Below are positions 31,358-52,997 of a stretch of DNA of 64,000 nucleotides, piece after piece (the stretch's first letter is position 1; the number at the start of each line of letters is the position of its first letter). The position numbers and the translations under genes were made by a program. Source of the stretch: Alphaproteobacteria bacterium (GTDB lineage Bacteria; Pseudomonadota; Alphaproteobacteria; UBA8366); contig CBDDIB010000001.1 of assembly GCA_965228695.1 (NCBI GenBank), positions 373,893 through 437,892 of the forward strand, in the 5' to 3' direction. The notes beneath the pieces were generated by a model. That model was not told where the DNA came from. It made no database searches and saw only the letters and a list, made by a program, of their open reading frames with translations.

Positions 31358-31439
31358 GATTCTTCGAACAATTGTACCAAGCGAATGGATTTGCCGCACG
31401 AAATCTGTCAGTGAAACAGTGCCATCCGCTAGCGGTGAC

Positions 31440-31478
31440 AAAAAGGGGCGGCGCGGGTTGGAAGGCCCGCGCGGCCGC
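31440..31478 (-). terminator. intrinsic terminator downstream of ParB-like gene
   Basis: Minus strand GCGCGGG-loop-CCCGCGC followed by CCCCTTTTT. Confidence 0.55.
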
Positions 31479-31491
31479 GCAGATGGCTATG

Positions 31492-31527
31492 GAAGCCGGG
31501 CCGTGCAGGACAGCACGGCCCGGCTTC
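31492..31527. repeat. perfect 15-bp inverted repeat
   Basis: GAAGCCGGGCCGTGC-AGGACA-GCACGGCCCGGCTTC just after the ParB stop. Confidence 0.85.
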
Positions 31528-31534
31528 GAGAGAG

Positions 31535-33751: not shown

Positions 33752-33754
33752 CCG

Positions 33755-35212
33755 CTAAATGTATCTCGTGTAGTCGGTGCTTATAGCCTGGCCTTCTTCT
33801 AAATATTTCAGGACTTCGCCGACCTTACGCGCCGCCCGGATCGGGATCGGCAGCCGCTGATTCATCTGTGTCGAGTTCCAGTTGATCTTGGTCAGCGAAA
33901 AAACCTCATCGGCAATCTGCGATATCGTGCTGTCGCAGCTTTCATGGGGGCAGAGCAGCAGAGGTCGCGGATCGTATTGGCCCGGATAGGTGCCGTAATA
34001 AGGAATGCTGCCGTTTGTGTAGAGCAGGCCCTTGCCGGCAAGATTTACGAACGTGCCGCGAAGCACCGGATAGTTGCCGTCACGCAAAATTTTCACCGCG
34101 TACGATTCCTGGACCCAGACCAGGTCCCGGAGTTCGGTACCGGCCTCATTAAGCGCCTTCAAAGTGCCTTCCGCCTCATCGCTCCGGAAGCGCGAGGTCT
34201 TCAGGACAATCACGCGCGCAGGGAAATGTTTATGGTGGTTCTTGTAAGCCGAGAGCACCTGAGAGGTCAGCTCATAAGCATCGTTGAAGGTCATATAAGG
34301 GTGCCGGCCGCGGCTTTCGGTCTGGGCGCGCTTGCCTTTCAGAATAAAACCGCGGCCGCGCTCATCGAACATTTGCGCCGCGCTCGTAAAGAGCTGCTGG
34401 CCGCCGGCTTCCCGGTAAAAGCTGATTCCAACGTAGCAAGCCGCGTATTCGCCCTCGCGCGGCATCCGGCGCCACGGAATGCGGCCGCTACCCTTGTAGT
34501 AGAGCGTCGTCATCAGGTTCCAGGTTCTGTCAGCCTGATCCTGTATGTCGCGGTCGCGACTTTCCTTGATCTTTCGAGGGATCGATGCCTTCTCATCGAG
34601 AACATCTTCCCAGACGATCTGGATTGGAAAACTCAGGCCCATGGTTCTGGCCTTGAGCATGCCCCGGAAATTCGGGGCATCCGAACCGCTGCTGTCTTCT
34701 TTCTCGGTCGTGCTCTTTGAATCGACCTTGGCGTTCCAGACACGCTCGATCAAAGCGACGGGAAGCGCGACGATCGCCACGTCCGGCCTGTGGCTGCTGT
34801 CATCGAGAGTCTGCAATTCGGAGACGATCTCCGCGACGGCCATCTCCACCGCCTTGTAGTGGTCGGGTTCCTTCCTGATCTTCTCGATCTTGCTTTGAGG
34901 CAGGGCCGCCGTCGCGCCGTCCTCTATCTCAAACCGGCAACGGAAGGGGTTGTTATTGCCAAGCCCCGGAAAGTCCGGGTGCAGGTTCGGGTGCTTCTCG
35001 GTTTTGCCCTTGAATCCCGTCGCGGCATCGGCCAGGAATTTTTGTGTATCTTCGACTGTCTTGGCGCTACCGACGACAGCAAGCCGGATCATTTCTCCCA
35101 GTGGCGGCTGCAGCGGTCCGGCTTCGACAAGCCCCAGACGCGGGTCCGGGTGGTGATGCTGGTCACCAAACTCCAGTTCCGGCTCTTCGAATATCTTGCT
35201 TTCGAAATCCAT
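33755..35212 (-). CDS. short prokaryotic Argonaute (MID-PIWI, catalytically inactive)
   Basis: EPELEFG, LYYK..PW, YVGISFY (Asp replaced), [17 protein letters not shown]; 485 aa, no PAZ. Confidence 0.92.
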
Positions 35213-36534
35213 TAGACAGCGAGCCTTTGCTGGTCATCGGGCTCTTCGGCCTTTTTCTTCGGCGTGCCCCAGACATCTTCGGGCACCCGCGTTTCGAGGG
35301 AGACCTGTGGTGGTTCACCGAACCGTAGACAGGGCTCGGTCCCGGCGTCTTGCTCAAAGAGATCGCCTTTGGCGCGATCCGACTGCGTGAGAAAGCGGTG
35401 CCACATGATGACCTGCCCGCGCAGCGAGGCGCTGTTGTCCATCCGTTTTTTCCCGGACAGCAGCGCATGCGGATAGGAATGCGGCGTAAATCCGTTGGTG
35501 GTGAAGAAATAGGTCGGCGTGATCACCAGGAACCACTGATCGTCCAGCAGCTCGAACCGGGGAACGAACGCGTGGTGACGCACAAAGTCCACGCGCCCCT
35601 CTTCCTTCTTGCTGGTGATGACGTTGACCACGTCGGCGCTGGTCTTTTTCTTCGACGCTTCATAGGGGAATGTGCGCGTTTCATTGGCCCGAAGCGCCCT
35701 GAAATAAAACAGCTTGTTGTCCTTGTGCCAGCCCAGGTCTTCCCAGACCTGGTGCTTGAGTGCGTTTTTCAGCAGGAACGCGAAGTGGTTTTGTTCATCG
35801 AGGTCTTCGTGAAACGCGAGATAGCTCGTCTCGATGGCTTCGACCTGATCAAGATCGACAATATCGCGGCACGGTGATGTCCGCGGATCATGGAATGACC
35901 AGAACGATCCGCCGCGTATAACCCAGTCGAAGCGCGCGGGCTCATCGCCGTCAAGCAGGATCGCGGCGGCCTTCTTGCCGGTATGGGGTGTTGAGGCAAC
36001 GTAGATTTCCGGGGGCAACGTGATAGGCAGAATATTGACGAGCGCTTCCTCGCCGCCGCCAAGCGGCGGAACGTAGTAGCCAAAACCAGCCTTAGGAACT
36101 GTAAGGGCTGCGAGGCGGTCCACAGCATTACTGTCGAGAATGTCGCGTTCCTTGCTGAATCGAAGCCGGCGCTCGCCCTCTGTGAAACCGTTCGGCACCT
36201 CCTGCCAGTAAAAGGTTTCATCCGAGCGCCGGTAAAGGACGATAATCACGGGCAGGTTCGAACCGCGCCAGTAATCCAGGTCTTTATTTCTTAGAAGATA
36301 ACTGAAGCCCTGGTCATCTTCCGATGTATATATGCCCGACTCTGTTGCCTTCACCTGGACAGCAATCATCCGCGCTAGCGGCCGGCCATCATCCATCACC
36401 TCGGCAATACCGTCGATGCCGGCCTCGAGTCGTGAGCGGCCGTCAAACTGAAAGCCGATATTGAGAAACCGCAAGCGCGCTGCCGCCTCGCCGATTTCCC
36501 CGAGCATCTGGCTGGATGTAAGAATCTTCGACAT
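35212..36534 (-). CDS. DUF4365 (DREN) PD-(D/E)xK nuclease fused to APAZ domain
   Basis: GE.GE, GIDG, QVKAT nuclease motifs; C-terminal [20 protein letters not shown] motifs; TAATG overlap with Ago. Confidence 0.85.
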
Positions 36535-36771
36535 ATCTCCATCATAGAACAATCTAAGAACATTTGGTATCAGATTGTGCCTGCTACATGCCATGGTTGT
36601 GGGCAACTTACGACCTCGGCATGAGGTATGATCGCTGCACCGGGGTCGGGAGCCGCGTCTTCGCTATAAGGAAGCGAGAGAGAGTCCGGCCTGCTGGGGT
36701 TCCACCGGACATACCCGAAAAAACAAGAAGAACAGACAGCCTTCAACCAGCATCCTGCCTTTGACCCGCGT

Positions 36772-37893
36772 TCAGCGCGAACCCGTATCGGTGCGCCATC
36801 GGGAGTCGAGCGGTCCCCAAAGAATTTGATGAGGGTCGCGCCGCGCGGCCTCGATCTCTTTTGCGGTGACGGCATAGCGCAGGAAATTGCCCTCGTGGTC
36901 CTCAAGGCAGGTAAAAATTCCTCCGCTCTCATGCAGGATTTTCCTGGGATCGGCGTAGGTGCCGCGTCCGATCATCGTGGCAAGCCGTTCGGGATCGTGG
37001 TGCTCGTACAGGAATGGGTCGAAAGCGCGCGGCGTCTGCGTCTGCGCGATAACGGCGCCCAAGGGCTTGTTCCAGTAATACTGGACGCGCAGCGCATCTT
37101 CGTGAAGGACGGTGTGGTCGTAAAATATCCGCGCCACCAGCTCACCGAACTGGATGGGATGCAGCTTTTCGCAAATGATGTGCTGGAATCTATGAAGCCG
37201 GAACTGCCGATGGACGCCGCCGTCAAAGGCGCAAATAAGGCCGAGGTTGCCTGTCCGCAGCGCAGCTCCCAGCGTAATCAGATTGTCGAAGAAATCGAAC
37301 GCTTCGAACCTCGTGTCGCGCGTGTCGATCTCGACAATATAAAGCGAATAAGGCGGCCCGTAGAAGAATTCCGGGAACGGCGGATCGCCTAGATAGCATG
37401 AATGCATGTCTTTGCGCATCGCATAGGCGCGTTCGATCATGCCGAGATAGGCGATGCCCGGCATAAAGTCTTTCGGAACAACACTGTCCGGGACAGGATC
37501 ATCGCGCGTCCGGTGATCGTGGGAAGCGTGACCCTTTCGGCACAACAGCCAGAAGATTTTGCCGAGCCAGAGCGCAAGAAGTTCAGGATCAAGCTCCTGC
37601 ACAGCGGCAAAGGCATCGCCGGAACGCACGCGGCGCGAAATCTCCGATTCCAGGCGGCCAAAACGATGATGATTGCATTTCTCGCAAATATCGACCCTGA
37701 CGCTCTTGTAAGTCCTGCCGGCAAAGTTGGGGAGCGTCAGCCGCGCCGTTTCCAGCTTGTGATGTTTTTGCAGCCAGCGCGGAAAGATATGCTCCTGCGT
37801 CTTGGAAACCCTGCCGAACTTGCGCCCGCACAGCGGGCAGTGGGTTGCAATATCCCGCAGGGCCAAAACATCGCTTATCATCCGCAGGGACAT
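36772..37893 (-). CDS. HNH-like (treble-clef) nuclease domain protein
   Basis: CPLC..EHIFP.W..CEKCN N-terminal signature; 2-bp gap to upstream gene. Confidence 0.65.
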   Translation of the reverse strand: MSLRMISDVLALRDIATHCPLCGRKFGRVSKTQEHIFPRWLQKHHKLETARLTLPNFAGRTYKSVRVDICEKCNHHRFGRLESEISRRVRSGDAFAAVQELDPELLALWLGKIFWLLCRKGHASHDHRTRDDPVPDSVVPKDFMPGIAYLGMIERAYAMRKDMHSCYLGDPPFPEFFYGPPYSLYIVEIDTRDTRFEAFDFFDNLITLGAALRTGNLGLICAFDGGVHRQFRLHRFQHIICEKLHPIQFGELVARIFYDHTVLHEDALRVQYYWNKPLGAVIAQTQTPRAFDPFLYEHHDPERLATMIGRGTYADPRKILHESGGIFTCLEDHEGNFLRYAVTAKEIEAARRDPHQILWGPLDSRWRTDTGSR

Positions 37894-37895
37894 GA

Positions 37896-39278
37896 TCAGT
37901 CAGGCATCCCGTCAGTGGGGTCGAAATCGGATTCCCCGCCGCTGATGCCGGCAAACACGTCATCGTCTTCCCTGTATGACTGAATCGCGGCGACAACCGC
38001 CCTGTTGCTCTTAACGATCGCTTCAACCAGCTCTTTGAGATAAGCCGTCGTTTCAGCGGTGGCACCTATATAGCCGGCACGGATCAGGTCGAGAAAAGGC
38101 CCTTGCCGCAAGTAGCGGCCGGCCAGACTCTCAAAACTCACGCGGACCGCACCGCGCGGCCCTTTACATGACGGATCAGCCCGCTGCCGCTCAAAATGAT
38201 CTATCGGCATAACGATCCCGGCATTGCCGAGTGCGCCGCCACGCTTGACGAACTTGATATAGAAAACCTGCGAATTGAGACGGTACTCGTACGGACCAGG
38301 CGGATGTTGTTTTGCGAACTTGCGCATCCGTTTGATCTCGGAGTCGAGGTTGGCATCCGGGCGATAAACCCAGTCAGTATCCCGGTCCTTGCGCTTGTGA
38401 GGTTCAAGCATTTTGTACTGGACCATCACAATGTTCTGGCGCGTCGCATTGACATAGATGAGATCGACGCCGAAGACCTTTTCAAGCGGGCGGCGGTTGG
38501 CGGTGAAGACTTCAAGCCGTTCACGCCCCTTCTCGAACACGGCCCGGCCTGTGATGTCGCTGCCGGTCAATTCGTAGTCAGGGAATGTGCGGGCGTCGTG
38601 CTCGACGACGGAATCTTCCATGATGTTGACGCGGGCGAGCGCTGTGTCCTGGTTCCTGGCGAGTTCAAGCGAGACAGCCTGATCGCCGGGCGACAGGCCG
38701 AATGCGCGCAAGGCCGTGTGCACCGCATCTTCTTGGAAGGCATCCATGCTACGGAAATATTTGGGGGCTGAAAGCGACGCGACGGCCGCGCGCATAGCAC
38801 CGCGATTTGACTCGATGGCGGCGAGCTTCTCGACCAGATGAGCGCTGAGCTTTGGCGATAAAGCGATAACGGATTCGCGAGAATCCAGCCTATCACGAAG
38901 ATTGCGCGTATGGGCGTTGTCGGTGACAAGCTTGATAATTTCAGATTTTGACGACGGCTGGATATGCTGGGCGCGCTTGACCTTGATCCGCGATTCCAGC
39001 GTTGTGATGGCGCTGCGCGAACTGGCCAGCCCGAAATAAACTTCACTGCCGTCGTCGCCCTTGCCGATGACGAGGCAGGCAGTCGGTACGCGAACCTTCT
39101 CGAACAGCTCGTGCGACCGTGCGATTGTGAACTCGTTGGCGCCGCGTCGTGACTCACGCAGGCGCGACCATTCCTCACTGTCAAACTGAAACACCACGAG
39201 GGGCTTCTTCTGCACGAGTCGTTTCAGGTTTTCGAGCCACTCATCTGACTTCTTTTTTCTCTTCTTCGTTTGTTTCAT
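37896..39278 (-). CDS. putative PD-(D/E)xK nuclease
   Basis: ED..EHD, LE..GVDLIY, VMVQYK restriction-like motifs; abuts helicase stop. Confidence 0.65.
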   Translation of the reverse strand: MKQTKKRKKKSDEWLENLKRLVQKKPLVVFQFDSEEWSRLRESRRGANEFTIARSHELFEKVRVPTACLVIGKGDDGSEVYFGLASSRSAITTLESRIKVKRAQHIQPSSKSEIIKLVTDNAHTRNLRDRLDSRESVIALSPKLSAHLVEKLAAIESNRGAMRAAVASLSAPKYFRSMDAFQEDAVHTALRAFGLSPGDQAVSLELARNQDTALARVNIMEDSVVEHDARTFPDYELTGSDITGRAVFEKGRERLEVFTANRRPLEKVFGVDLIYVNATRQNIVMVQYKMLEPHKRKDRDTDWVYRPDANLDSEIKRMRKFAKQHPPGPYEYRLNSQVFYIKFVKRGGALGNAGIVMPIDHFERQRADPSCKGPRGAVRVSFESLAGRYLRQGPFLDLIRAGYIGATAETTAYLKELVEAIVKSNRAVVAAIQSYREDDDVFAGISGGESDFDPTDGMPD

Positions 39279-40724
39279 TCACACTCCTGGGTTCAGTACC
39301 GGATTTGTCGAGATAATCGTCAACGACCGCGCCCCGCGCGTAAGCGCGACATACAGTTCTTTTTTCGAAAGCGATGTCGCGTCCAGAACAATGCCGTGAT
39401 CGAATTCCAGCCCTTTGACCAGCAGCGTCGTGCCGATCAGCCTGCGCCGCCCAACGGGACGGCCCTTGTGGCGGAATTCACCGTGATACTTCTCGGCGGC
39501 TTCCGCTAGAGAAAGCTCCGGGTGCAGCACATGTTTTCCGAGCACCCCCAACGCCCGGTAGAACAGGTCGGCGCGGACGACTTCGACGCCTGCGGTCTGT
39601 CTAAGCGCCTGCAGAAACCCCGTCATGGCGGCGCTGCCGGGCGCGACCAGATAGGCATTGGCATTGCGGGCCGCTTCGGGGTTCCGGGTATTGGCCCGGA
39701 TATTGACCTGCTCGCCGCGAACCGTTCCAGCGGGAAGATTCTGCTCAACGGCGGTCATGCATCGTTTGGCGAAGACAACGACCTCCTTCAGGCGTGCCGT
39801 GTCGGTTCGCGCCCGCTCGACCTTCCGAATGAACGAGAACAGGTCTTTCCCCTCGACTTCTTCGATCGAGGAAAAGCGGCCACCAAGATTCCGCGATAGC
39901 TTATGGCACTTGGCCTTGTACTCTTGGCTGCCCCTGTGAATGGCGATCACGGTATGGGCGCGGTCGCACTGGAAATAACGGCAGGCGTTGCCCTGCGACT
40001 GAATAAGCGCCTGCGGATCGGCATTGGCATGCGTGAAGGTAACAGCGGCCGGACGATCCGCGTTCAGATCGACAGGCTGGTCCTGCTCAAGGCGTGTACG
40101 AACATTGCGCAGCCATGTGCCGAAATCGCCCGCGCCGGCCTGTATCCAGCGGTGGGGCACGTCAAGGGCGCCAAGCTGTTCAAAGCGTCCTTCAACGTCG
40201 CGCTCCCAATCTATGGGGCTCTGACCGTCAAAATCGAAGATACCTTGCAGCGGATCGCCAAGTATCCGGCACGGCAGGTCGCGCGCCAGTTTGAGAACGA
40301 TGCCGTGCTGGGCGGCCGAACAATCCTGGTATTCATCGACATAGAGCCCGTCATAGGACGCGCGGACAATCCTGCGGATAAACGCATGATCGAGCAGACC
40401 CGCACAGACTTCGTATAGCGCGTTCCACTGCTCGTTATCCGCGGGGCGCTCATCAGCCCAGCCACATGTACCTGAATAAGAAAGCGAAAGCCGCAATGAC
40501 CAGCTTGCGATCGTATCAATGCGATAGAGCCTGTCACTGACGCCAAGGGCGCGCATTTTGCGCCGCAAGGCGTTCACACCCGCATAGGTGTGGGTCAGGA
40601 TCAGTTGCCGTCCGGCGCTCCGGGCTGTCGACTCCGCGATCAGGTGGGTTTTGCCGTACCCGGCCGGAGCCACGACATAGCCGGCCCCTTGGTGCGCGGC
40701 AAGGATGGCGGACAGCTCACACAT
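39279..40724 (-). CDS. UvrD-like SF1 helicase (GajB-like)
   Basis: APAGYGKT, VDEYQD, GDPLQ.IF, KGLEFD, LYVALTRG; overlaps OLD nuclease stop. Confidence 0.88.
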   Translation of the reverse strand: MCELSAILAAHQGAGYVVAPAGYGKTHLIAESTARSAGRQLILTHTYAGVNALRRKMRALGVSDRLYRIDTIASWSLRLSLSYSGTCGWADERPADNEQWNALYEVCAGLLDHAFIRRIVRASYDGLYVDEYQDCSAAQHGIVLKLARDLPCRILGDPLQGIFDFDGQSPIDWERDVEGRFEQLGALDVPHRWIQAGAGDFGTWLRNVRTRLEQDQPVDLNADRPAAVTFTHANADPQALIQSQGNACRYFQCDRAHTVIAIHRGSQEYKAKCHKLSRNLGGRFSSIEEVEGKDLFSFIRKVERARTDTARLKEVVVFAKRCMTAVEQNLPAGTVRGEQVNIRANTRNPEAARNANAYLVAPGSAAMTGFLQALRQTAGVEVVRADLFYRALGVLGKHVLHPELSLAEAAEKYHGEFRHKGRPVGRRRLIGTTLLVKGLEFDHGIVLDATSLSKKELYVALTRGARSLTIISTNPVLNPGV

Positions 40725-42429
40725 TGTCGATCCAGCCCCGCAAGCTGGTAAGCTGCCGGACCAGATCGCTTTGACGGATGGCGTTGTCAGCCAAGTGGTC
40801 GGAAACCGCTGCCGCCCAGTCGCGGCCCCAGCTTTGCCGCTTGAACCAGTCGCTGGCCTTGGCCGCCCTGCCGAGCGCGATGCGAATTTCCGGCGTGTCG
40901 GCCCACGCCGCAAAATCACGATCAAAACCTTCGCCAAACTGGGTCCGCATCTGATTCAGAAGGCGGGCATCGTCATTCCAGATGGCACGGGCTGCGTGGA
41001 AGGATGCCGTGACGCCCGCCCACGGAAGATCCGCGAACACGCGTTCTTCTATCGACAGCGCGCCGTCCCACTTCGCGACCGTGATACCTGCATTACGCAA
41101 GGCTTGCGCATCGGCATCGGAGAAATCCCCCGGCGCATCGGAATCGGCCAGAACGGCGACATCGTAGCCAAGCGCTTTCAGGTTCTCGGCGATCTCCCTG
41201 ATCTTGCTCACACCAACCGCGTCGAACAACGCAACACCGCGATAGGCGAAGGAATCCTTGTTTTCGGACAAGGTCCAATGATCGTCCAGGCCGCGTAGAA
41301 AACCGACCTCGGTAGCGCCTTCGCAAACGATGATCTTGGGCGCGAGAAACGCTTCGGCACCTGAACGTATTTTGCCCTGTATGGAATCCGCGATGGCAGG
41401 CTTGTTTGCCGCCACCACGTCAATGCGTCCGCCATCGCAATGGACGATATGCAGGTCATCGACAGTCAGTTCGCGCAACACGACGGGCGAGTGGGTGGTC
41501 AGGAAATATTGCCCCGTATCGTCTTCTTTCAAATGTTGCAGGAGCCGGGCAATGCGGTGAGGCTCAAGCCCCACCTCGACCTCATCGAACAGCGTGATAT
41601 GCGGCGCACGCAGCGCTTGTTTCTGCAAACCGGTCGTCAGCATACGCTTGGAACCGAGTCCAAGTTGCCTGAGTGGCATGTCACCGTCATGCAGGGCAAG
41701 GCCAGCCATCCGTACGTTGATGGCGTCGGAATCTAGATGCGCCTTGTAGGATGCGGCAACGTTGACGCCAAGCGCGCGAGCGGTCGTCTCGGCCGCTGCC
41801 GCTACATCGTCAAAGCCTGCCAAATCCTCCACCCGCCGGGCTTCCAGGGCGGATTTGGCGGCACGCGCTGCATCGGCCAGTGACGACGAAATATTTTCGG
41901 TTTCGGTGAGCTGGCTCAGAATCGAGCCGCGCGACCATGTCAAGTGGCGGTCGGAAATCGCGCCAATCAGGCTGACCGACACCCTGGCCCGATCGTTCGC
42001 TCTGAACGGGACGCCTTCATCCTCATCGTTCTTGATGACGGACCATGACGGCTCAAGGTCATCCGCCACTGCAAGGCGGACCCGCAGCGCATCTTCGAGG
42101 CCGTCACCGGGATCGTCAGCGCGAGCAAGCGTTATAGCATTCCAGCCGCACAGCGCGTGACCGTATTTTTCAAGGTCGCGGAACGCATCCGGCAGATCGC
42201 CGAGAACGGCTTCTATCGTGATTGGATTCTCCGGATTGCATAAATGAAAGTCGGCATCATCAAACGACAGGTTCCACTGTGGATGGAAGACCCGGCGCAG
42301 CGCCTCAAGGATTGTCGATTTGGTCGAATCACCGCGCCCAATCAGACACAGAACATTGCGGTCCGGTACCGGCCAGTCGAGTTCGCGGATACCCCGGAAG
42401 TTTTCTACCGATAGATGGCGTATGCGCAT
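40717..42429 (-). CDS. OLD-family ATP-dependent nuclease, ABC ATPase + TOPRIM (GajA-like)
   Basis: ENFRGI, GRGDSTKSTIL, LGLGS, DEVEVGLEP, TTHSP, VCEGATE, ADSD. Confidence 0.9.
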   Translation of the reverse strand: MRIRHLSVENFRGIRELDWPVPDRNVLCLIGRGDSTKSTILEALRRVFHPQWNLSFDDADFHLCNPENPITIEAVLGDLPDAFRDLEKYGHALCGWNAITLARADDPGDGLEDALRVRLAVADDLEPSWSVIKNDEDEGVPFRANDRARVSVSLIGAISDRHLTWSRGSILSQLTETENISSSLADAARAAKSALEARRVEDLAGFDDVAAAAETTARALGVNVAASYKAHLDSDAINVRMAGLALHDGDMPLRQLGLGSKRMLTTGLQKQALRAPHITLFDEVEVGLEPHRIARLLQHLKEDDTGQYFLTTHSPVVLRELTVDDLHIVHCDGGRIDVVAANKPAIADSIQGKIRSGAEAFLAPKIIVCEGATEVGFLRGLDDHWTLSENKDSFAYRGVALFDAVGVSKIREIAENLKALGYDVAVLADSDAPGDFSDADAQALRNAGITVAKWDGALSIEERVFADLPWAGVTASFHAARAIWNDDARLLNQMRTQFGEGFDRDFAAWADTPEIRIALGRAAKASDWFKRQSWGRDWAAAVSDHLADNAIRQSDLVRQLTSLRGWIDNV

Positions 42430-42437
42430 GGACGCCC

Positions 42438-44747
42438 CTACGGAATTGTGTCGAAGCGTACGTAGAACTCCTTGTCCCCGTCAGTGATCTGAAATGCCGG
42501 CTCGAGAGCTTTTGGCACGGGGATGAATATTCGGTTCTTCGTTACGATCGTGGTTGTAGGGAACATCGAGCCGCCTGTCTGGTCGGTCTCAAGAGGCGAT
42601 TTTAGTTCAATGTCATAGTAAAGGCTGAGTTCTCCTGTTGCGTCCGTGAATATATAGATGACGCGGTGCGCCCCCCAGATCAGTTTGGTTGTGTGCGGCC
42701 AGCGCAGAAACTCCCCTTCTCTTTTGATGATACGGTCCGAGAGCGCAAGGAACATTTGGAAATTGTTGAGCTTCGGGTGCTCGGCTGCAACGGTGAGGAC
42801 TTTCTTGTCACTTTGCAGGTCATCCCGCATGAGCGGCGGCGAGGCCTCAAATTCGTTGGCTGGCGGCGCACCATCGGCCGGTCCGATGATGTCGGGGAAT
42901 TCTTCTTCGACGCTGCCGACCTGTTCTTTGCTGACTTGTTGCCGCTGTACGGAAGTGCGGCTTCTGGAAGTCCTGAGAACTTCGGAAAAATCCGCGTTGC
43001 CGGCAAGATAGTCAGCCAGCAACGATTCGATAGCCCCGTAATCGCCCTCCTGAAGGCGGAACAGCTCCTTGTTCTCCTTCAGCCTTTTGAACAGGGCGTC
43101 GCGGCCCTGCTTGGTCGAGGACGGCACGTGATCCCGGATATGGGGATAGACATGCTCGCGCACGAAATCCTTCATGAAACCGTCGAACACATCGCGGGCG
43201 GCGGTATAGCATTCGAGAACGATCTTCACGGACTGGATATCGCGGGCGATCGACAGGAGCAGCGCGATGTCCCTTTTCTCGGCGTGAAAGGTGACGCCAT
43301 GGCTGATCGTGGCGAAAGCCGCATCCACGTCCGGCATGAGATAGTCATCAAGAAGAATGCCGCGCAGCCGGACAAGAAACATGGCCTCTTCGAACGTAAG
43401 CTGCGTGGCGGCAATCCTGTCAACGATGACGTGCTCTGGCACCTGCTCCAGATGAACGATCTCATTCAGGTAGCGAAGCTGAAGCTTGCGGCGCGGATTG
43501 GCCTGGCTGACATGAAACAGATTGGCCTGATCGGTTCCAAATCGTTTCAGGATCGTGCTGTCCTGACCCACATAGAAATGTTTGGGCTTGTTCGGCTCGT
43601 AGGTCTGCACCTCGCCGAGCGGTATCATCGTGTCGGCGGGCAACACGGAGATTTTGACCTTATGCGCAAGCGCAAACTGGCCGTGCGAGAGGATATATTG
43701 CTGGAACTGCTGGTTCGCGTCGGCCGCGTCGGTCTGCGCAATGTCGGCGGACGCCTCGGCCTCGATCAGCTCAACAAGGTTCGCAACATGCTGGATGCTG
43801 TCCCGGCTAAGGGCCTCCCGTCCTGCGGTTGGGTGAAGGATGTCGAGATTGACAAATCCGCCCAGCCCGTAGTGGCCGGATACCGGGATCGGTGCGAGGC
43901 CGAACAGATTGCGGAATCCGTGCGTGGGTCCGCTCTGCTGAACCAGGAATACTTCGCCTTTGATGGGTACGCCGTTCAGCGAGATGTCAGTGAGCCGCGC
44001 CAGCATCCGGCTTTGGGCGTTGATTGAGACTTGCAGCGTCCCGGCAAACTCGCCGCGCGATACTGCGCGAGATGATACCTGCTCAAAGCCCGCGGCCTTT
44101 CCGGCAAGCGTGTCCGCAAAGCCCTGCTGGCTGATAAGCTGTCCGTTCACCAAAACGGGAACCGGCAGGAACTGCACATACTGTTTCAGGTATTCGCAGG
44201 TTGCGGCTTCATCGATCGGATAGGCGGGGTCGAGTTCAGCATCAATCAACGTCCCCGGCTCGCGGTCATCGGCGATGCGTTCGAGATCGATGCAGTCCTG
44301 CGCGATCTTGAGATCCTCGCGCCGCGCCGTGCTGATGAGCGTCGTATCGGAGTCGATGTTACGGGTTTCCACGCGCAGCGCCGTGCAGACGCCGAAATTC
44401 GCCATCGCGCCGATCCCGAACGTTCCAATGACGCCGGACTGCTGGGCAAGTTCGGATTTCTTGCCGCTCGAACCGGCCTTCCAGAAATTGTTCTTAAGGA
44501 CATCCTCGGCCATGCCGATGCCGTCATCGCGCACGGTCAGCCGGTTCGCCTCGACGGTAATTTCGATTTTGCGTTCGGCAGCCACAAGTCCTTGCGCCGT
44601 GCAGCGCATGAGAATTGCGTCATAGGCGTTCTGCACGTTTTCGCGAAGGAAGGCTTTGGGAGAGTCGTAAATCTCCGATGACAGGATTTCGAGAATCCTG
44701 CTTGTCTCAACATCGAATGCGATCTGTTCCTTGGCTGGCGCCGTCAT
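42438..44747 (-). CDS. Hsp90-like GHKL ATPase with long uncharacterised C-terminal region
   Basis: IYDSPKAFLRENVQNAYDA, DDGIGM, IGTFGIG, GT motifs. Confidence 0.85.
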   Translation of the reverse strand: MTAPAKEQIAFDVETSRILEILSSEIYDSPKAFLRENVQNAYDAILMRCTAQGLVAAERKIEITVEANRLTVRDDGIGMAEDVLKNNFWKAGSSGKKSELAQQSGVIGTFGIGAMANFGVCTALRVETRNIDSDTTLISTARREDLKIAQDCIDLERIADDREPGTLIDAELDPAYPIDEAATCEYLKQYVQFLPVPVLVNGQLISQQGFADTLAGKAAGFEQVSSRAVSRGEFAGTLQVSINAQSRMLARLTDISLNGVPIKGEVFLVQQSGPTHGFRNLFGLAPIPVSGHYGLGGFVNLDILHPTAGREALSRDSIQHVANLVELIEAEASADIAQTDAADANQQFQQYILSHGQFALAHKVKISVLPADTMIPLGEVQTYEPNKPKHFYVGQDSTILKRFGTDQANLFHVSQANPRRKLQLRYLNEIVHLEQVPEHVIVDRIAATQLTFEEAMFLVRLRGILLDDYLMPDVDAAFATISHGVTFHAEKRDIALLLSIARDIQSVKIVLECYTAARDVFDGFMKDFVREHVYPHIRDHVPSSTKQGRDALFKRLKENKELFRLQEGDYGAIESLLADYLAGNADFSEVLRTSRSRTSVQRQQVSKEQVGSVEEEFPDIIGPADGAPPANEFEASPPLMRDDLQSDKKVLTVAAEHPKLNNFQMFLALSDRIIKREGEFLRWPHTTKLIWGAHRVIYIFTDATGELSLYYDIELKSPLETDQTGGSMFPTTTIVTKNRIFIPVPKALEPAFQITDGDKEFYVRFDTIP

Positions 44748-46195
44748 TACTTCAACCTCGCCGCATATTTGTCACGTATCTCAATGACCGCGCCGTCGGC
44801 TGCACCGGCGATCAGCGGCAGCTTCAACAGCTCTGCAAGGCGCTGCCGATTGTCGGCAGCCCACAAGGCATCCATAAGTGCAATCGCTTCGGCCGTGCTT
44901 TCGGGCGGGTCGAACGTACCTGCGATCCCGACTTGGTCATCAAGACGGATCAGGCAGTCAAGGAGCACGCGGCGAGCCAGCGGCTCCGCCGGCGCCAGTG
45001 GCGAGAGGATTTGCACGGCGGAACCATAATCGCCGTTATCATACGCGGCCTGGGCCTGCGTCAGCAGGACCGTGTTGCGGTCCGGTCTGACGAATGGTTC
45101 CGGTGGCGGATCGAATGAAAAATCCAGATAGCCGGTCTTGTTAGGCGGCAATGAACGAGCACCCCAAATAGGCATACGCAAATTGTCATTGTGCATTTCG
45201 CGAACATGCAAACGGCCCTTCCTGTTCGGGACATCAAGTTCCACGACATTATAGGCGCGGCCATGGCGGAAGGCGGCGCCGCCGCACAGCGTACCGGCGC
45301 TGATAACGGTGATGCGGCGATCGGGACCGTGACGGAAACGCGTATCAAGAAACTGCGGCTTGTGTTGATGACCGTGGAACCCAAGACTGAACCCGCCATC
45401 GACGAGATTCTGGACAATATCGGGGTCCATATAATCAACCTCCGCCGGCGGTCCTTCCGTGTTGTGATGCCAGACGGCAATGCGCAGATGCTCCTGTGCA
45501 CTTGATAACTGGCGTAGCCGCTTTCCTGCATAGGCGATGCAATCGGGGTGAATAGCGCCTTGGCGGTTCAAGAGGTCGTTATTGTGGCAACTGCAAAATC
45601 CGACCACGACGATCTCAAGGTCCGGAAGCTCGAAGACATCAAGCTGGCTGTCCGGTTCTAGAGAATAGGCGCGCTGCCCGTCATAAAAGCGGCCGTAAAA
45701 ATCGACGAACGCCGCAAAGCGCTGGCGGTACATGTCCCAGTCGGTAATCTCAAAGAGAGAAAAGTCATCCCATGACCAGCGCATCGGCGAATCCGGCTTG
45801 AAGAGTTCGGCGACAAGCGCCTTGTCGGTGCCGGCGGTCATCTCGATTGACGTGAGGGACTCGCGGAAATGGTGGTCGCTTACATCGTGATTGCCGGGGA
45901 TAAGAATGACACGCCGCTTGTCACCTCCCACAAAGCGGTCGGTAAGTTCGTTAAGGAAGGCTAACGCTTCATCGTATTGCTTTCGCAGTGCCGCTTCTGC
46001 GTCTGCCGCACCATGCCTGACGCCCTGAATGATATCGCCACTAACAATTATGAGTTTGGGCGGTTCAATGCGCGGGTCGTCATGTAACGTGTATCTGTCG
46101 CGGTCCCTTTCGAGAGAGTCGAGCAACACCTGGTTGCCGATCGGGTTTGCCGGATCGCGGTGCAGATCGGATATGTGGAGCACACTGAGCGTCAT
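44747..46195 (-). CDS. calcineurin-like metallophosphoesterase with C-terminal helical (TPR-like) region
   Basis: HISDLH, SGD, PGNHD, WHH, HGHQH motifs; 1-bp overlap with the ATPase start. Confidence 0.88.
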   Translation of the reverse strand: MTLSVLHISDLHRDPANPIGNQVLLDSLERDRDRYTLHDDPRIEPPKLIIVSGDIIQGVRHGAADAEAALRKQYDEALAFLNELTDRFVGGDKRRVILIPGNHDVSDHHFRESLTSIEMTAGTDKALVAELFKPDSPMRWSWDDFSLFEITDWDMYRQRFAAFVDFYGRFYDGQRAYSLEPDSQLDVFELPDLEIVVVGFCSCHNNDLLNRQGAIHPDCIAYAGKRLRQLSSAQEHLRIAVWHHNTEGPPAEVDYMDPDIVQNLVDGGFSLGFHGHQHKPQFLDTRFRHGPDRRITVISAGTLCGGAAFRHGRAYNVVELDVPNRKGRLHVREMHNDNLRMPIWGARSLPPNKTGYLDFSFDPPPEPFVRPDRNTVLLTQAQAAYDNGDYGSAVQILSPLAPAEPLARRVLLDCLIRLDDQVGIAGTFDPPESTAEAIALMDALWAADNRQRLAELLKLPLIAGAADGAVIEIRDKYAARLK

Positions 46196-46201
46196 CGCGA
46201 T

Positions 46202-46939
46202 CTAACTCCGCGCTGCTTCCGCCGCGACGTGTCCGGCGAGTTCGGTGACGAATGTGCGCAGGCCAGTCAAGTCGCTCAGCTCCGCATAAGCGCCGTCCGC
46301 CGAAGCCGAGCGCGGCGATGTCAGAATTGAGGCTGTTGTATAAAGCTGCTCCTGCACCAGCTTGCGGCAGAGGATGTTATAGCGCTCCGCGTAGGACGCG
46401 CCCTGAAACTCCTTGAATACGGGGAAATGCGGCGAGGTATCCCGCACCGGCGAGCGCGATGCCGGCGCGTCTTCTAGCAGCATCAGCCAGCCGACGAAAG
46501 GGCGCGGCTGCTCACCAAACGCGCTTTCCCGATAGGCCGTCCAGAGATCATGCGCCGTGCCGATGGCTTCTTCCGAGCGGTTGTTGAAATTGTTGCCGAA
46601 AGACGGGCCGACCTGGCTTTTGAACTCGAGCGCCGCGATCAGACGGCCTTCATTGATAACCAGAAGGTCCCACAGCTTCGTGGGCCGAAAGTAGCCCGGC
46701 AATGTCAGCACGCGGCGATTCTGGTGGATATCGGCATGGTCAAGGCCGTTGGCCCGCACGATGTCGATCACTAGGGCGATAAAGCCATCCATGTTCTTGC
46801 CGCCGGTGACGCCGGCGCGTTCGCCCTGATCGGCCTTGCCGGCTTCAATCTGCTTCTGGCGCGCCTTTTCGCGATTCCCCCAAAACGCCTGGACGGCTTC
46901 GCGGGCCTTTCGTTCGTAGTCGGCAAGATCAATGGCCAT
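46202..46939 (-). CDS. PaeR7I/XhoI-family type II restriction endonuclease
   Basis: [48 protein letters not shown]. Confidence 0.92.
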
Positions 46940-46947
46940 GAACCCCC

Positions 46948-48666
46948 CTATTCGCCGTTACCGCCGATGGCGGCACGTTCTTCTTTTGACAGGCCATAGA
47001 GCTTGGCGACGGCCTTGTTGCAGGCGTCAACATCATTGCGCGCCGCCGCTTCGATCAGCTCGGCTTGCTGGGCTGCGGAAACATCCTGCCAGCGCGGCAG
47101 GCGGATGCGCCGCAGATATTGCGCCTGAAACCGCAGATACCCCCCGCGCATGCGGGTCGCGTAGATCGACACGAAGAGCTTGGCGATGCCCGAGCGCAGC
47201 ACGGCGCGCAGCGCCCTCAGATCCCACTCGTCTGAAACGATGAAGTAAAGATTGTGGTGCGGGTACAGGCGCCCGTCTTCATAGACGATGTGCGCTTCGC
47301 CCTTAATGTCGGGGATCAGCAGCTTGGGTCTTCCGGCAAGCGCCGGATAAATCCGGTCGATCGTCCGGTACCAGTTGGCGGGCGCTTTCTGTGCAACATG
47401 CCGTTTGGCGATCTGATCCTTACGCGCTTCCAGAAAGGCTTTCAGGCGGGGATAGTCGTTCAGATCGACAAGACCACCGCTATCAGCAAACGGATTGATA
47501 ACGCCGAGGCCGCGCCATTTGACCTCGCCGCTGTCGATATCGCGGGTCATGGCCAGCGGCAGCTTGCGGTCCTCCTCCACGTCGAGTTCGTCGAACGGGC
47601 CGATAAAAGCCTTGTCCGCGCCTGTCGCCACGCCGATCCCGACCTTGCACCCGGCATCTTCAATGGCCGGGTAGTCGCGTTCCAACCGGCGGATCAGCAT
47701 GAGCTGGTCGGGCGATTCCAGAATCCAGGGCTGCGCCCCGGCGGCCACATCAGCCATTTCCTTGACCGGCCCGTCGGCGGGCGGTGCGTCGCCCGTCAGC
47801 AACTGTACAGCAAGCTCGTCGAGAACGGCTTTGTCGATGGCCGGGCGGTGCGCGATCCGCGTCTTGCCCGGCTTTTCTTTTGTGATGATGGTGATCGCCG
47901 GATAGGCGATGACCTCGGCATGAAAAGCCGGCGTGTCCGTCATATCGACATAGGCTTTCAGATGGTAGCTGTCAGCCACCATCTGCCGTAGCGGGCCGCC
48001 ATAGCGGTTCTTCATCCAGCGGTCGGCGCAGATAAAGCCCAGCGTGCCGCCATCGGCCAGCAATGTGAGCGACCGTTCGATGAAAGGGATATAGATGTCG
48101 GCGCGGTCGAACACGGTGCGGTAACGCGCTCGGTACTCGGCAATCAGCGCGTCGGGGATCAGCTCCTGCCGCACATAAGGGGGATTGCCGACAACAAAAC
48201 CGAACGCGCCGGGCAGATCGGTCAGCAGGAAATCCCCCTGTAAGAGCCATGTGCCGGCAAGCTGTTCTGCGGCCTCCGCGTCGATACCGGCCTCTCTCAG
48301 CGCGGCAATCACCTTGCTGCGCGTGGCCCCGAACGATGATTCGTGTAGCTCGACGCCGCGTATGCAAGGCGCCAGCACCGTGGCTGCATCGCCGGACGGA
48401 TCGCCTTCTCGCCAGCTTGCCAGCAGGCGCCCGATCACAGTCTGCAAAAAATCGCCGTCACCGAAGGACGGCTCCAGAAGGCGGTAGCTGTAAAGCGGAC
48501 GGTCGGCCGTATAGCCGGCAAGATCGAGAATGAACTCGACCACTTCGCGCCTTGTATAGATCGCGCCGCGTTGCTCGATCCCGGCGGCAGCAAGAAGGGC
48601 GACAGCATCGGTCACCGGGCACAGGCCCGGCAGCGACGCTTGCTGTGCGGAAGACAAAACGGCCAT
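46948..48666 (-). CDS. N6-adenine DNA methyltransferase (M.PaeR7I/TaqI-like, gamma class)
   Basis: [11 protein letters not shown] motif I followed by VGNPPY motif IV; TRD with RFQAQYLR. Confidence 0.93.
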
Positions 48667-48866
48667 CAGGCGACCTCCCGCCCCGGCCGCACATCGATCG
48701 GCCGATCGTCGCGGTGCCGCTGCAAAAACTCGCGCATAGACCGGCGAATCAGCCACGATGCGCTCACATCGCTGCGCCGCGCAAGCTGATCCAGGGCCTC
48801 GTAATCGTCAGGGTCCACCGTAACGGTAACGCGCTTCAGGGGTTTGGTTTTCTTGCGGTTGGGCAT
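48666..48866 (-). CDS. ribbon-helix-helix (CopG) regulator heading the defence operon
   Basis: [23 protein letters not shown]; stop overlaps MTase ATG. Confidence 0.8.
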
Positions 48867-49134
48867 TTCCAGCTCATATAGGTGATGCATAGTTTCATAC
48901 GACCATACACTAGATATGCCGACCTGAAACAGGATTTTCGCTATATATGGCGCAATGCCGTGGAAGATGCGCCTGCATCACATCCCGCGACCAAAATCCC
49001 AATCCCGCGTGCGGTGGCTGGAGTGGCTTGGCCCTTTAAGTCCGTCGAAGGCCTTTGGTGCGGGTTGCCGGCCTGGGGTCACCGGTGTCGCAACCGCCCC
49101 GGCCGCCATCATCACCATCGTCATCGCCGGCGGC

Positions 49135-49318
49135 GCGGACGAACTCTTCCATCAGATCAATGCGGCCGCGTCTTGCAGCGGATGTCCCGTACGAGCTGTT
49201 CGGCCGTCTCACACGGCCCGGCGTTCCGTCTCATCTTCGCTCCTTGGAGAGCTGCGATAAGCAAAAATCCTCCTTGTCAGTCAGGTCGATTTTGTCTCAT
49301 TGGTGCTGACACCGAACA
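49135..49318 (-). mobile_element. IS3-family left-end remnant
   Basis: Minus strand TGTTCGGTGTCAGCACCAATGAGACA end, AAGGAGCGAAGATG start and degenerate MRR..AEQLVRDIR.KTR orfA start ending at a stop. Confidence 0.6.
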
Positions 49319-49360
49319 AAATCGCCCGACAACCCATTACATTAGTGTTGCAGCAGGAAC

Positions 49361-49669
49361 CTAACTGTCGCGCCGGTTCCAGACCAGGAACGCCGCCCCT
49401 TCCTCCTCGAACAGCGCCGCCCGGATTGGCTCGGGAAAGCTCGGGTCGTCGAGCTGGACGCTGAGATAGTCCCGTGGTTCGTCGCCGTTGGTCTTGGCCT
49501 TCCAGGCGGCGCCGAGCTCGGCACGACCGGCATAGACCCGGAAGTCCGGGGCACCTTCGCTCTTCTTCGCATCATTGGCGACGATCCTGGCCTTGACGTT
49601 GACCGTCAGGGTGCGGATCGTCCCTGTGTAGCCGTCCTTGCCGGTTGTAAAACTTCCGATCGTAGCCAT
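49361..49669 (-). CDS. DUF736 family protein
   Basis: MATIGSF..G.IRTL, APDFRV, GAAW, YLSVQLDDPSF. Confidence 0.9.
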   Translation of the reverse strand: MATIGSFTTGKDGYTGTIRTLTVNVKARIVANDAKKSEGAPDFRVYAGRAELGAAWKAKTNGDEPRDYLSVQLDDPSFPEPIRAALFEEEGAAFLVWNRRDS

Positions 49670-49672: not shown

Positions 49673-49930
49673 TCACGTCTCCTTTGGTTGGGTTGTAGTT
49701 GAGGATGGGCGCGTGTCGGAAAGCTCTTTGCGCGCCCGCTTGAAGCCGGGATCGGCGTTGATGAACGCCTCCAGCATGAAAGGAATGAGGTCGGCGACAC
49801 TCTCCTTCTGGCCGTAGGCCCGGCGGTAGATTTCGGCATAATCGTTCAGCGCCGACTTCAGATCGGCGTCGGCGGTGAAGGTGATCTTCACCGCCTCGCG
49901 GTCGGGGAGCTTGTCGAGTTTCAGGGTCAT
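49673..49930 (-). CDS. DUF2274 family protein
   Basis: LKL.KLPDR..VKIT, L.DYA.IY..YG, LIP.ML..F..D..F. Confidence 0.88.
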   Translation of the reverse strand: MTLKLDKLPDREAVKITFTADADLKSALNDYAEIYRRAYGQKESVADLIPFMLEAFINADPGFKRARKELSDTRPSSTTTQPKET

Positions 49931-51246
49931 CGGATCACTCCCAGGTCGCGATAGGGCCGGAGCACCAGATCCTTGTTGACGATGATGCGGAGCGGCCAGC
50001 CGGGACGAATGGTGATGGTTGGCTGGATGTTGAGGTTGCGCTCGGTGATGCGCTGGCCGACCTGACTGGCGCTGTCTTGAGACGACTCGCGGATCGCCTC
50101 GACGAGGTCATCCTCTTCATCGCCAAACGTCAGCTCGGTGCCAACGCCAAGCAGGGTCGAGAGCACGATGCCTTTCAGGAGCCGCCAGGTGTGGAAATCG
50201 ACCTCGTCCTCGAGCCCGGCATAGCCGGCGGTGTCGGTCGCGGGCAGGTTTTCGATCACCATGGAGGAGCCGTCCGGCATGATGATCCGCTGCCAGACGA
50301 CAAGCGCGCGGTCCTGGCCAAAGGCGATGACGCTGTCGTAGGTGCCAATCAAACGCGACCCCTGCGGGATCAGCAGATAGCGGCCGGAGACCGTGTCGTA
50401 GATATTCTCCGTGATCTGAGCAGTGACGCGACCCGGCAGATCGGAGTTGATGCCGGTGAGAAGGCTGGCGGAAATGACCGTACCCGCCATCACCTGGTAA
50501 GGCGACGCCGGGTCCTGCAGCGCGTGCGGATTATAAATGTTCGCATCGACGCCCTGGTCGAGGAAGTCGAGCTTGCGGCCTTGCAGGTTCTGGTCGTTCT
50601 GGCGGTCAAGCACCAGCAGACCGCGTGGGTCACCGCCGCCGGCGACTTCAAAGGGATTGCGGTCGGCCGGCGCGGCGCCGGGCGCAGTGTGTATTCCCGC
50701 CCCCGAGACATCTGCCTGTGTGGCCTCGGCCGTGCCGGAGGTGAGCTGAAAGAATACGCCCGCTTCGCGGCCTTGTTGAGCGAGTCGAGCTTGGCGAATG
50801 CGTTCGGCGCGGGCCGCATCATCCTCCGGGCTCGGACGGAACGGCAGCGCCGGTGCCGGTTCGAGTCCCAAGTCCCGTTCGGCGCCGACAACGGCGGGCC
50901 CGATATCACCGGGCAGCGGCGGACCAAGCTGAACGGGTGGCCGCGGGATATCGCTGTAACGTCGCGGCAGGGCTTCGAGCCCATCGGGAGTCGGATTGTT
51001 GTCGGTCCGGTAGAGCTCACGCCCGTTATCGTTGCGGTCGAACAGACGCGGCGGATCGAGCGCGAAGATGGTCGCGCCGAGGATCAACAGCAGTCCGGTA
51101 CCGGAGAGAGCGATCAACACCCGCCGGTTGATCCGCGTGACCGGTCGTGGCGTGGCGCGCAACGCCAACTCTTCCGGATCGATCTTCGGGGCGGCCGAAG
51201 CCGGCGGTTCGGGACCCGACGGGTCGTCTCGGCGCTCATTCATCAT
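49927..51246 (-). CDS. trbI: conjugal transfer protein TrbI (VirB10)
   Basis: SPYQVMAGTVI.ASL.TGINSDLPG, IPQGSRLIG, NIQPTITIRPG. Confidence 0.95.
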   Translation of the reverse strand: MMNERRDDPSGPEPPASAAPKIDPEELALRATPRPVTRINRRVLIALSGTGLLLILGATIFALDPPRLFDRNDNGRELYRTDNNPTPDGLEALPRRYSDIPRPPVQLGPPLPGDIGPAVVGAERDLGLEPAPALPFRPSPEDDAARAERIRQARLAQQGREAGVFFQLTSGTAEATQADVSGAGIHTAPGAAPADRNPFEVAGGGDPRGLLVLDRQNDQNLQGRKLDFLDQGVDANIYNPHALQDPASPYQVMAGTVISASLLTGINSDLPGRVTAQITENIYDTVSGRYLLIPQGSRLIGTYDSVIAFGQDRALVVWQRIIMPDGSSMVIENLPATDTAGYAGLEDEVDFHTWRLLKGIVLSTLLGVGTELTFGDEEDDLVEAIRESSQDSASQVGQRITERNLNIQPTITIRPGWPLRIIVNKDLVLRPYRDLGVIR

Positions 51247-52987: not shown

Positions 52988-52997
52988 CAATCGTCCC

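Follow-up and report, generated by a model that had tools for sequence, protein, structure and literature searches.

Defense islands can be expressed as one regulated operon, as in the case of a plasmid operon that combines BREX with a type IV enzyme. Restriction-modification (RM) can also be linked to further immunity: PrrC guards EcoprrI, and PARIS senses the anti-restriction factor Ocr. Among RM systems, those of the PaeR7I type recognize and cleave the site CTCGAG. Here, we analyzed a 64,000-nt stretch (the window) of the chromosome of an alphaproteobacterium with a 5.47-Mb genome (contig CBDDIB010000001.1, positions 373,893 to 437,892), in which nine genes lie head to tail on the minus strand at 36772–48866. 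Like the plasmid operon of BREX and a type IV enzyme, this array joins differing systems on one strand of a mobile element, probably under one regulator. However, it stacks five or six systems with junctions of at most 8 bp, and its putative regulator is the RHH protein of an RM system. We consider it likely that the array consists of five or six autonomous anti-phage modules, placed head to tail on an integrative conjugative element (ICE) and probably read from a promoter upstream of RHH.

All genes of the array are encoded on the minus strand. In order, they are RHH (48666–48866, with an alternative ATG at 48890), a DNA methyltransferase (MTase; 46948–48666), a restriction endonuclease (REase; 46202–46939), a metallophosphoesterase (MPE; 44747–46195), a GHKL ATPase (42438–44747), GajA (40717–42429), GajB (39279–40724, with its start at 40724), g8 (37896–39278) and g9 (36772–37893). 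Start codons were chosen by the range of the hidden Markov model alignment together with a purine-rich stretch upstream. The nine genes had been claimed by a first-pass annotation made from the sequence alone, and its coordinates and all eight junctions (−1, 8, 6, −1, 8, −8, 0 and 2 bp from RHH to g9) were reproduced exactly. Family models supported its domain calls for RHH, MTase, REase, phosphoesterase, GHKL, OLD nuclease and UvrD. Its PD-(D/E)xK call for g8 found no family match, and the basis for this call is the fold model and the conserved D272...Q287-x-K289 only; for g9, the HNH_5 match stayed below threshold, and the conserved CxxC...EH...CxxCN residues support an HNH assignment. The annotation had missed that the same-strand array extends past gene nine, where a 237-bp gap is followed by the two SPARDA genes, DREN-APAZ and a short prokaryotic Argonaute (pAgo), and by a gene termed g12. 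Elsewhere in the window, gaps of at most 8 bp occur in 15 of 33 same-strand neighbor pairs, according to a crude gene call based on the longest open reading frames (ORFs). Eight tight junctions in a row are thus operon-like and not random, yet ordinary for an operon. The intergenic region of ~495 bp upstream of RHH (48867–49360, minus strand), which separates it from a DUF736 gene, is likely to hold the putative promoter/operator of the array. A promoter scan detected no sigma-70-like consensus there; it recovered 2 promoter-like sites where 5.7 were expected, and its outcome carries little information in this organism. Terminator-like sites (23 versus 15.6 ± 4.4 in shuffles) did not clearly exceed chance, and all that are oriented with the operon fall within coding sequence.

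The first-pass annotation had regarded the nine genes as a layered or physically integrated system of undescribed architecture. A synteny search for the sub-modules instead revealed independent assortment. A sample of 400 other alphaproteobacterial genomes contained seven with the PaeR7I-type REase; the MTase is adjacent in all seven, RHH in one (71% identity, directly upstream; G343/L181), and the other array modules in none, within ~9 kb. REase matches were also found on 111 plasmids, and the three examined lack both RHH and the other modules. Among 400 other genomes of Pseudomonadota, seven encode window-type GajA (35–41% identity), with GajB adjacent in six and with neither g8 nor any other module within ~7.5 kb in all seven. 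For the GHKL ATPase, an alignment scan of metagenome contigs yielded 219 relatives, and the 80 best-scoring loci were retained. At none of these 80 loci were REase, GajA, GajB, g8, g9, DREN-APAZ or pAgo present, and one locus carries a weak opposite-strand MTase match. The MPE–GHKL pair also occurs alone on megaplasmids of P. aeruginosa (42–43% identity), and a 58%-identical copy of g9 lies alone on a Bradyrhizobium plasmid. Among the 61 genome loci of g8, 60 lack g9; only one (L013) contains the other modules of the island, and no neighbor cluster is common to more than 7 of them. Owing to this independent assortment, a single integrated system is not supported. Every sub-module occurs alone elsewhere, so the undescribed architecture of the first-pass annotation resolves into a defense island on an ICE. 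What stands is the layered arsenal, whose probable co-expression is plausible from the tight junctions. The annotation had also pointed to an assignment by defense-system models: PADLOC matched RM, Gabija and SPARDA, whereas MPE, GHKL, g8 and g9 had no match above threshold.

The nuclease–helicase part of the array corresponds closely to Gabija. GajA is an OLD-family ATPase-TOPRIM nuclease (PADLOC PDLC04168, 4.3e-196; Pfam AAA_21, AAA_15 and OLD-like_TOPRIM), and GajB, which overlaps GajA by 8 nt, matches PADLOC PDLC04173 (2.5e-154) and Pfam UvrD-helicase (9.1e-09), with the Walker A sequence GYGKT at residue 22. The combination of an ATPase-TOPRIM protein with a UvrD-like helicase, the overlapping genes and the strong PADLOC models are all shared with Gabija. 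The locus differs in two respects: the P-loop of its GajA (residues ~31–38) reads GRGDSTKS and not GxxxxGK[ST], despite an end-to-end match to the GajA model, and a third gene, g8, is appended at a 0-bp gap. As module 3, GajA and GajB would form the nuclease–helicase complex of Gabija.

The whole block was found solely in the window genome and in Chelativorans intermedius (L013/G041), where two of the nine genes are replaced. At the DNA level, 77–84% identity covers window positions 33614–48964 and stops there on both sides; because identity ends at the block edges, the block and not its surroundings is common to the two genomes. Otherwise, only matches of chance size (33–39 bp) were obtained, in 2 of 40 related genomes, and plasmid records had no DNA-level match to the block. 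Within the block, positions 39240–42434, which are exactly GajA–GajB, have no DNA match in Chelativorans intermedius. The corresponding stretch there (L013 6359–9933), flanked by the conserved GHKL and g8 genes, encodes a 609-aa GajA-type and a 582-aa GajB-type protein of another Gabija subtype (PADLOC GajB PDLC00149, 3.4e-251), seated at junctions of 8, −4 and 40 bp. This Gabija-for-Gabija swap indicates that two of the nine genes are exchangeable cassettes. Selection for the combination and recombination within the conserved flanking genes would account for it equally well.

The array is headed by a PaeR7I/XhoI-type RM system. RHH is a CopG-type regulator (Pfam RHH_1, E 3.7e-11), and its stop codon shares 1 nt with the start codon of the MTase gene (ATGA). 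Based on its matches to Pfam Eco57I (1.2e-22), Pfam TaqI_C (8.3e-07) and PADLOC MTase_II PDLC03313 (1.5e-260), the MTase is predicted to be the N6-adenine DNA methyltransferase of a PaeR7I/XhoI-type II RM system. The REase matches Pfam XhoI PF04555 (3.8e-103) over profile positions 1–191 of 191 and PADLOC REase_II (9.3e-123). Plasmid genes share 76% identity with it, and one of these is annotated as paeR7IR. The pairing of the REase with the MTase, here with an 8-bp junction, is kept in all seven genomes and all three plasmids. The end-to-end fit of the REase and the Eco57I/TaqI_C-type MTase directly upstream agree with described PaeR7I/XhoI systems, whereas the leading RHH gene sets this operon apart, being present in one of the seven alphaproteobacterial loci and in none of the three plasmids. 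In the one genome that has it, G343 (L181 6034–12188), the order is RHH [−4] MTase [11] REase [−4] SIR2 [−4] HerA. RHH belongs to the RM module and is not a dedicated regulator of nine genes, contrary to the earlier proposal of one RHH regulator for the whole array. As part of module 1, RHH would act as the RM's own transcriptional controller in the manner of C proteins, timing the endonuclease after the methylase. As a side observation, two of the seven alphaproteobacterial genomes (L186 9624–10360; L187 9700–10444) have the REase split into two ORFs beside an intact MTase, and these are probably decaying systems.

The MPE–GHKL pair has two described counterparts. A conflict system of Hsp90-like proteins was reportedly predicted by Nicastro in 2023, a definition known here second-hand through the Tiamat preprint. 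As far as the accessible text of that preprint extends, it summarizes predicted Hsp90-like defense proteins with calcineurin-like phosphoesterase effectors (bioRxiv 10.64898/2026.09.30.754977). The accessible part of the DefensePredictor report describes DS-8, which has a NACHT protein, and DS-9 as validated anti-phage systems in which the metallophosphatase is essential (PMC13092281). The MPE of the window is a calcineurin-like metallophosphoesterase (Pfam Metallophos, 3e-10) with the motifs DLH10-12, GD53, GNHD101 and GHQH275, which are conserved in the P. aeruginosa homolog. Its nearest named relative in NCBIfam is the DS-9 anti-phage phosphoesterase. The 769-aa GHKL ATPase is Hsp90-like (Pfam HATPase_c_3, 1.3e-10), and it retains the Bergerat motifs (ENVQNAYDA36, DDGIGM74 and GTFGIG108), which do not vary among 17 homologs. 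Neither protein matched a PADLOC or NCBIfam model above threshold: the MPE scored 54.3 bits for DS9_1 against a cut-off of 420 and 26 bits for DS-8 against 790, and the GHKL protein scored 87 bits (9.6e-25) for the HSP90 family against 455. A total of 2355 GHKL homologs were recovered among 7998 scored candidates, and in the 120 best matches the length stays near 769 aa throughout. The mean column identity of the ATPase is 80%.

The pairing of the two genes is strict. The MPE lies directly upstream of GHKL in 77 of the 80 metagenome loci, and the remaining three have at most 385 bp of upstream sequence. In 15 of the 26 longer loci, at least one PADLOC defense match (E at most 1e-12) lies within 6 kb. 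These neighbors are varied, including type I, II, III and IIG RM, SIR2–HerA, Druantia genes and PD-Lambda-2, which is the signature of a defense-island resident. Among six longer MPE relatives (P0391–P0396), one is fused to TIR (P0393), one to NACHT (P0395) and one to WD40/NACHT (P0394), indicating that the phosphoesterase is used as an effector in other immune-type architectures. A fused MPE–GHKL protein was not among these six, which is weak evidence.

Compared with DS-8 and DS-9, as far as these are characterized in the accessible text, the pair shares a metallophosphatase, the essential catalytic domain there, that is combined with an NTPase (NACHT in DS-8); however, the MPE falls far under both cut-offs, and its partner is a GHKL ATPase and not a HAD or NACHT protein. 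With the predicted Hsp90-like/calcineurin conflict system, in the outline given by the preprint, it shares the GHKL ATPase and phosphoesterase, the intact ATP-binding motifs and metal ligands, and the occurrence in defense islands. The two differ in that the predicted system is a single polypeptide with fast-varying C-termini, whereas here there are two separate, strictly paired genes and the GHKL protein is conserved in length and sequence. By this comparison, MPE–GHKL looks like a two-gene, sequence-conserved relative of the Hsp90-like/phosphoesterase idea, with an ATPase switch and a phosphoesterase effector. In module 2, an obligate pair, the ATPase would most likely be the sensor or switch, and the MPE would be the effector, hydrolyzing nucleotides or nucleic acid after the switch has been activated. 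Gene order, junctions, the families of RM, Gabija and SPARDA, the MPE–GHKL pairing and the separate distribution of the modules are observed, whereas co-transcription, control by RHH, the mechanisms given here for MPE–GHKL, g8 and g9 and any synergy between modules are what we infer. In the literature searched, no report of experimental tests of an MPE plus Hsp90-like ATPase pair was found.

The eighth gene, g8, belongs to a family without a match in Pfam, PADLOC, NCBIfam or PHROGs, although 1183 relatives at E at most 0.001 were recovered among 8000 scored candidates. An AlphaFold (AF2) model built from 19 homologs has a mean pLDDT (predicted local distance difference test) score of 61.8, with values of 80–90 for residues ~11–170. 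It comprises an EVE/PUA-like domain (~25–171) and a PD-(D/E)xK-like domain (~222–406), joined by a linker of ~50 residues that is poorly predicted. For the N-terminal domain, VIA-align gave the N-terminal EVE domain of VcaM4I (Z 10.3, rmsd 3.2 Å over 129 residues), followed by the THYN1 EVE domain (Z 9.1), McrB-NTD (Z 8.5), YTH (~8.2) and ASCH. The EVE domain of VcaM4I reads modified cytosine, and a structure of THYN1 EVE bound to 5mC DNA is available. The C-terminal domain matched RecU/PrfA resolvases in VIA-align (Z 7.4–7.5 over 132–140 residues) and Hjc and the SPARDA DREN in Foldseek (E ~0.03, for a region with pLDDT of 55–70). The Foldseek results were otherwise in agreement with those of VIA-align. 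Residues D272, Q287 and K289 are invariant, and QxK is a variant of (D/E)xK.

According to the accessible sections of two reports, modification-dependent restriction enzymes are built from a PUA-superfamily sensor that is fused to an HNH or PD-(D/E)XK nuclease (PMC7897488, PMC6765204). As far as these sections describe such enzymes (VcaM4I with EVE-HNH; PUA with PD-(D/E)XK), g8 shares a predicted N-terminal EVE/PUA-like domain and a predicted C-terminal endonuclease fold. It differs from them in having no sequence-level family membership and in being often embedded inside other defense operons. Given this described architecture, we read g8 as a candidate type IV-like, modification-dependent restriction enzyme of an undescribed sequence family. 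As module 4, it would be a single-polypeptide nuclease whose PUA/EVE-like pocket reads a modified base and whose PD-(D/E)xK domain cuts, and it would cover phages that escape RM by DNA hypermodification. PUA-calcineurin systems have recently been reported, in an account available in part, to read marks or mononucleotides made by a methylase. By analogy, and as part of the improbable proposal of spliced cassettes given below, the PUA-like pocket of g8 may read a mark or methylated mononucleotides from the co-operonic adenine methylase, which would link g8 functionally to the RM system.

Two further relationships were considered for g8, of which the first, an identity with GajC, was set aside as the less likely reading. 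In type II Gabija, GajC has a split MazF-like fold and is paired with a long GajB that has an extra N-terminal domain (PMC13069673). A UvrD helicase of ~690 aa, with Walker A near residues 257–265 (K252 in PMC13069673), lies beside g8 in six loci and had suggested this identity. However, this helicase belongs to a BPTD_3080-type RM, in which it directly follows Mod without g8 on a plasmid, and the structural matches listed for g8 are PUA/EVE and RecU, with no MazF chain among them. Separately, six loci (L026–L028, L031, L033 and L039; ~8678–9973) encode a 431–449-aa protein (c1) without a Pfam or PADLOC match, whose gene ends 3 bp ahead of g8, and L036 (4549–5898) encodes it upstream of Gabija–g8. 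Several of these loci also have RmrT/RmrA-like genes close by on the opposite strand. The c1 protein was rejected as a paralog of g8, with no similarity between the 431-aa form and g8 (hhalign probability 0.3).

For the ninth gene, g9, HNH_5 reached 22.4 bits, under the Pfam cut-off of 27.5. Residues C19, C22, E34, H35, C70, C73 and N74 are invariant in 36 sequences and fit a zinc-bound HNH motif. The AF2 model (pLDDT 89.9; predicted TM score 0.91) has a C-terminal alpha/beta domain. Against solved PDB structures, the best Foldseek E value was 0.18 and the best VIA Z score 4.8, with weak rows for the HNH nuclease Cap5, so that no match rose above noise. Because the VIA rows effectively covered residues 1–162 of g9, these comparisons do not establish the C-terminal domain as a new fold. 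The nearest ESM Atlas cluster is named 'HNH endonuclease' (0.97), and the family comprises 799 representative clusters. A neighbor of g8 in Pseudomonas CIP-10 was considered as a g9 homolog and set aside (E 0.31). As module 5, g9 would be an HNH nuclease with a C-terminal regulatory or sensor domain.

The genes beyond g9 form a SPARDA system on the same minus strand. DREN-APAZ (35212–36534) matches PADLOC Aga_REase-PNTD PDLC02398 (2e-179) and DUF4365 PF14280 (6e-27), and the short pAgo (33755–35212; junction −1) matches PADLOC pAgo_I (3.1e-174). As in described SPARDA, the two genes share a 1-nt overlap, and the PADLOC match of each is 1e-174 or better. The difference lies in g12 (33299–33751, 150 aa), a member of the phage-protein family phrog_19013 (4.3e-50), which is coupled 3 bp downstream of pAgo. 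SPARDA, behind its own spacer of 237 bp, would constitute module 6.

Several observations weigh against reading the array as autonomous modules under one promoter. The ~80% DNA identity and kept gene order in the second genome could reflect selection for the combination and not shared descent. In three loci (L092, L116 and L118), MPE–GHKL has its own spacer of 200–540 bp behind the neighboring systems, so the 6-bp REase–MPE junction of the window is a derived state that needs explanation. Co-transcription of the array under RHH is plausible from the gene layout alone. For g8, the model is only moderate across residues ~230–425 (pLDDT ~55–70). Moreover, its occurrence beside three Gabija subtypes exceeds a random neighborhood, and module 4 may therefore not be fully autonomous. 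On a Dinoroseobacter plasmid, too, a g8-like gene lies upstream of GajA/GajB-like genes, in reverse order.

The last two points favor a different account, in which Gabija and g8 form a three-gene variant. Here g8 would cooperate with GajB, for instance as an additional nuclease that the helicase recruits or licenses, and the other genes of the array would still be separate systems in a stack. We regard this account as possible but on balance doubtful. At 10 of the 61 loci, GajB is directly followed by g8 in the same orientation, at distances of −59 to 53 bp. The preceding Gabija belongs to three subtypes (PDLC04168/04173-type, PDLC00099/00105-type and PDLC00149-type), as determined by scanning cluster representatives against PADLOC; in L016, the GajB-type gene alone was identified. 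Additionally, the GajA–GajB–g8 trio recurs at 78–87% protein identity without the rest of the island (L014, L017 and L024), and the exchange in Chelativorans placed another Gabija ahead of g8. In four further loci (L018, L021, L043 and L053), g8 abuts a different UvrD-type helicase, which it separates, at junctions of −4 to 22 bp, from Mod of a type III-like RM (BPTD_3080-type). However, that helicase belongs to the RM: on a P. avellanae plasmid (L155), the same RM type occurs without g8, with Mod abutting the helicase. In the four loci g8 therefore looks inserted, behaving as a cassette that enters other defense operons. Furthermore, ~45 of the 61 g8 loci have no Gabija, the seven genomes with window-subtype Gabija have no g8 near it, and the architecture of g8, as treated in the accessible parts of the reports, suffices for a stand-alone type IV enzyme (PMC6765204, PMC7897488).

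Unrelated systems are repeatedly found stacked end to end in this gene pool: in the window array, in RHH–RM followed by SIR2–HerA (G343), and in a SPARTA–Gabija–g8 locus (L024 3790–11389) with the order TIR-APAZ [−11] pAgo [11] GajA [−8] GajB [0] g8. This recurrence is the basis for a more specific proposal, distinct from loose clustering, in which defense cassettes that lack promoters would be joined time and again, exactly at gene boundaries, to the end of a regulated 'lead' operon. One regulator would then dose an exchangeable stack, for which the exact Gabija-for-Gabija swap speaks. We consider this proposal improbable at present, albeit with a small chance of being correct.

The first-pass annotation had inferred that the downstream modules back up the RM. 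In a model of this kind, they would be specifically wired to the RM, with RHH controlling them jointly and with inhibition or bypass of the RM as their trigger. PaeR7I-type RM does repeatedly lead differing same-strand modules of abortive type. SIR2–HerA follows RHH–M–R at −4, −4 junctions in G343, an AAA_13/PDC-S06 ATPase with a DpnII-like nuclease lies 43 bp behind M–R on a Methylocystis plasmid, and an Abi_C protein comes after the RM on Aeromonas plasmids. RM genes also precede MPE–GHKL in five metagenome loci (L092, L095, L098, L117 and L118). However, the downstream partners all differ, and each is known or seen standing alone; conversely, the RM occurs alone in two loci (L183 and L185) and is followed by unrelated opposite-strand genes on D. 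vulgaris pDV. No significant PrrC or PARIS match was found downstream, where GajA resembles AriA as a generic AAA protein only (1e-14 to 1e-16), far below its GajA score. RM genes are also the commonest defense genes, so RM neighbors are expected in any island. Taken with this evidence, a guarding arrangement has a slim chance of being right. A single obligate machine of nine genes, assembling or signaling in the manner of BREX, DISARM or Dnd, is highly improbable: the tight junctions and the presence of a conserved block in a second genome speak for it, but the genes assort independently, and two of the nine are replaced by distant homologs in Chelativorans. In known multi-gene systems, the components stay together from lineage to lineage, which the genes of this array do not.

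The stack of autonomous modules appears to be the cargo defense island of an ICE, because the block is flanked by a tyrosine integrase gene (28975–30135) on one side and by DUF736, Trb and TraG genes on the other. The latter side comprises the DUF736 gene (49361–49669), a Trb-type type IV secretion system (T4SS) set with TrbI, CagX, VirB8, TrbL and TrbE genes (49927–58352), and the gene for the TraG coupling protein (60407–62509). The GC content of the block is ~0.56–0.61, and that of the T4SS/transfer side is ~0.63–0.70. Between the integrase and the block, three minus-strand genes (30308–33131) encode proteins of 377 aa and 361 aa without a family match and a ParB_N/HTH protein, and they are probably ICE maintenance genes. 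No tRNA genes were found in the 64,000-nt window. Beside the integrase, window positions 1–28308 hold a copper/metal resistance cluster, which includes genes for a P-type ATPase, a multicopper oxidase, CopB, a cupredoxin, a two-component system and DsbA/ScsC-like proteins.

As a natural example of how several unrelated systems can be packed into what is probably a single transcription unit of a conjugative element, the array is unusually clean. Its sister copy in Chelativorans intermedius, with one exchanged cassette, provides a convenient test bed for co-regulation and for additive versus synergistic protection. The more useful leads are its less familiar members. The very widespread MPE–GHKL pair, with more than 2000 homologs, is a candidate defense module, and further leads are offered by the g8 family, which has more than 1000 homologs and tends to ride inside other defense operons, and by g9, whose C-terminal domain is confidently modeled without a solved match.

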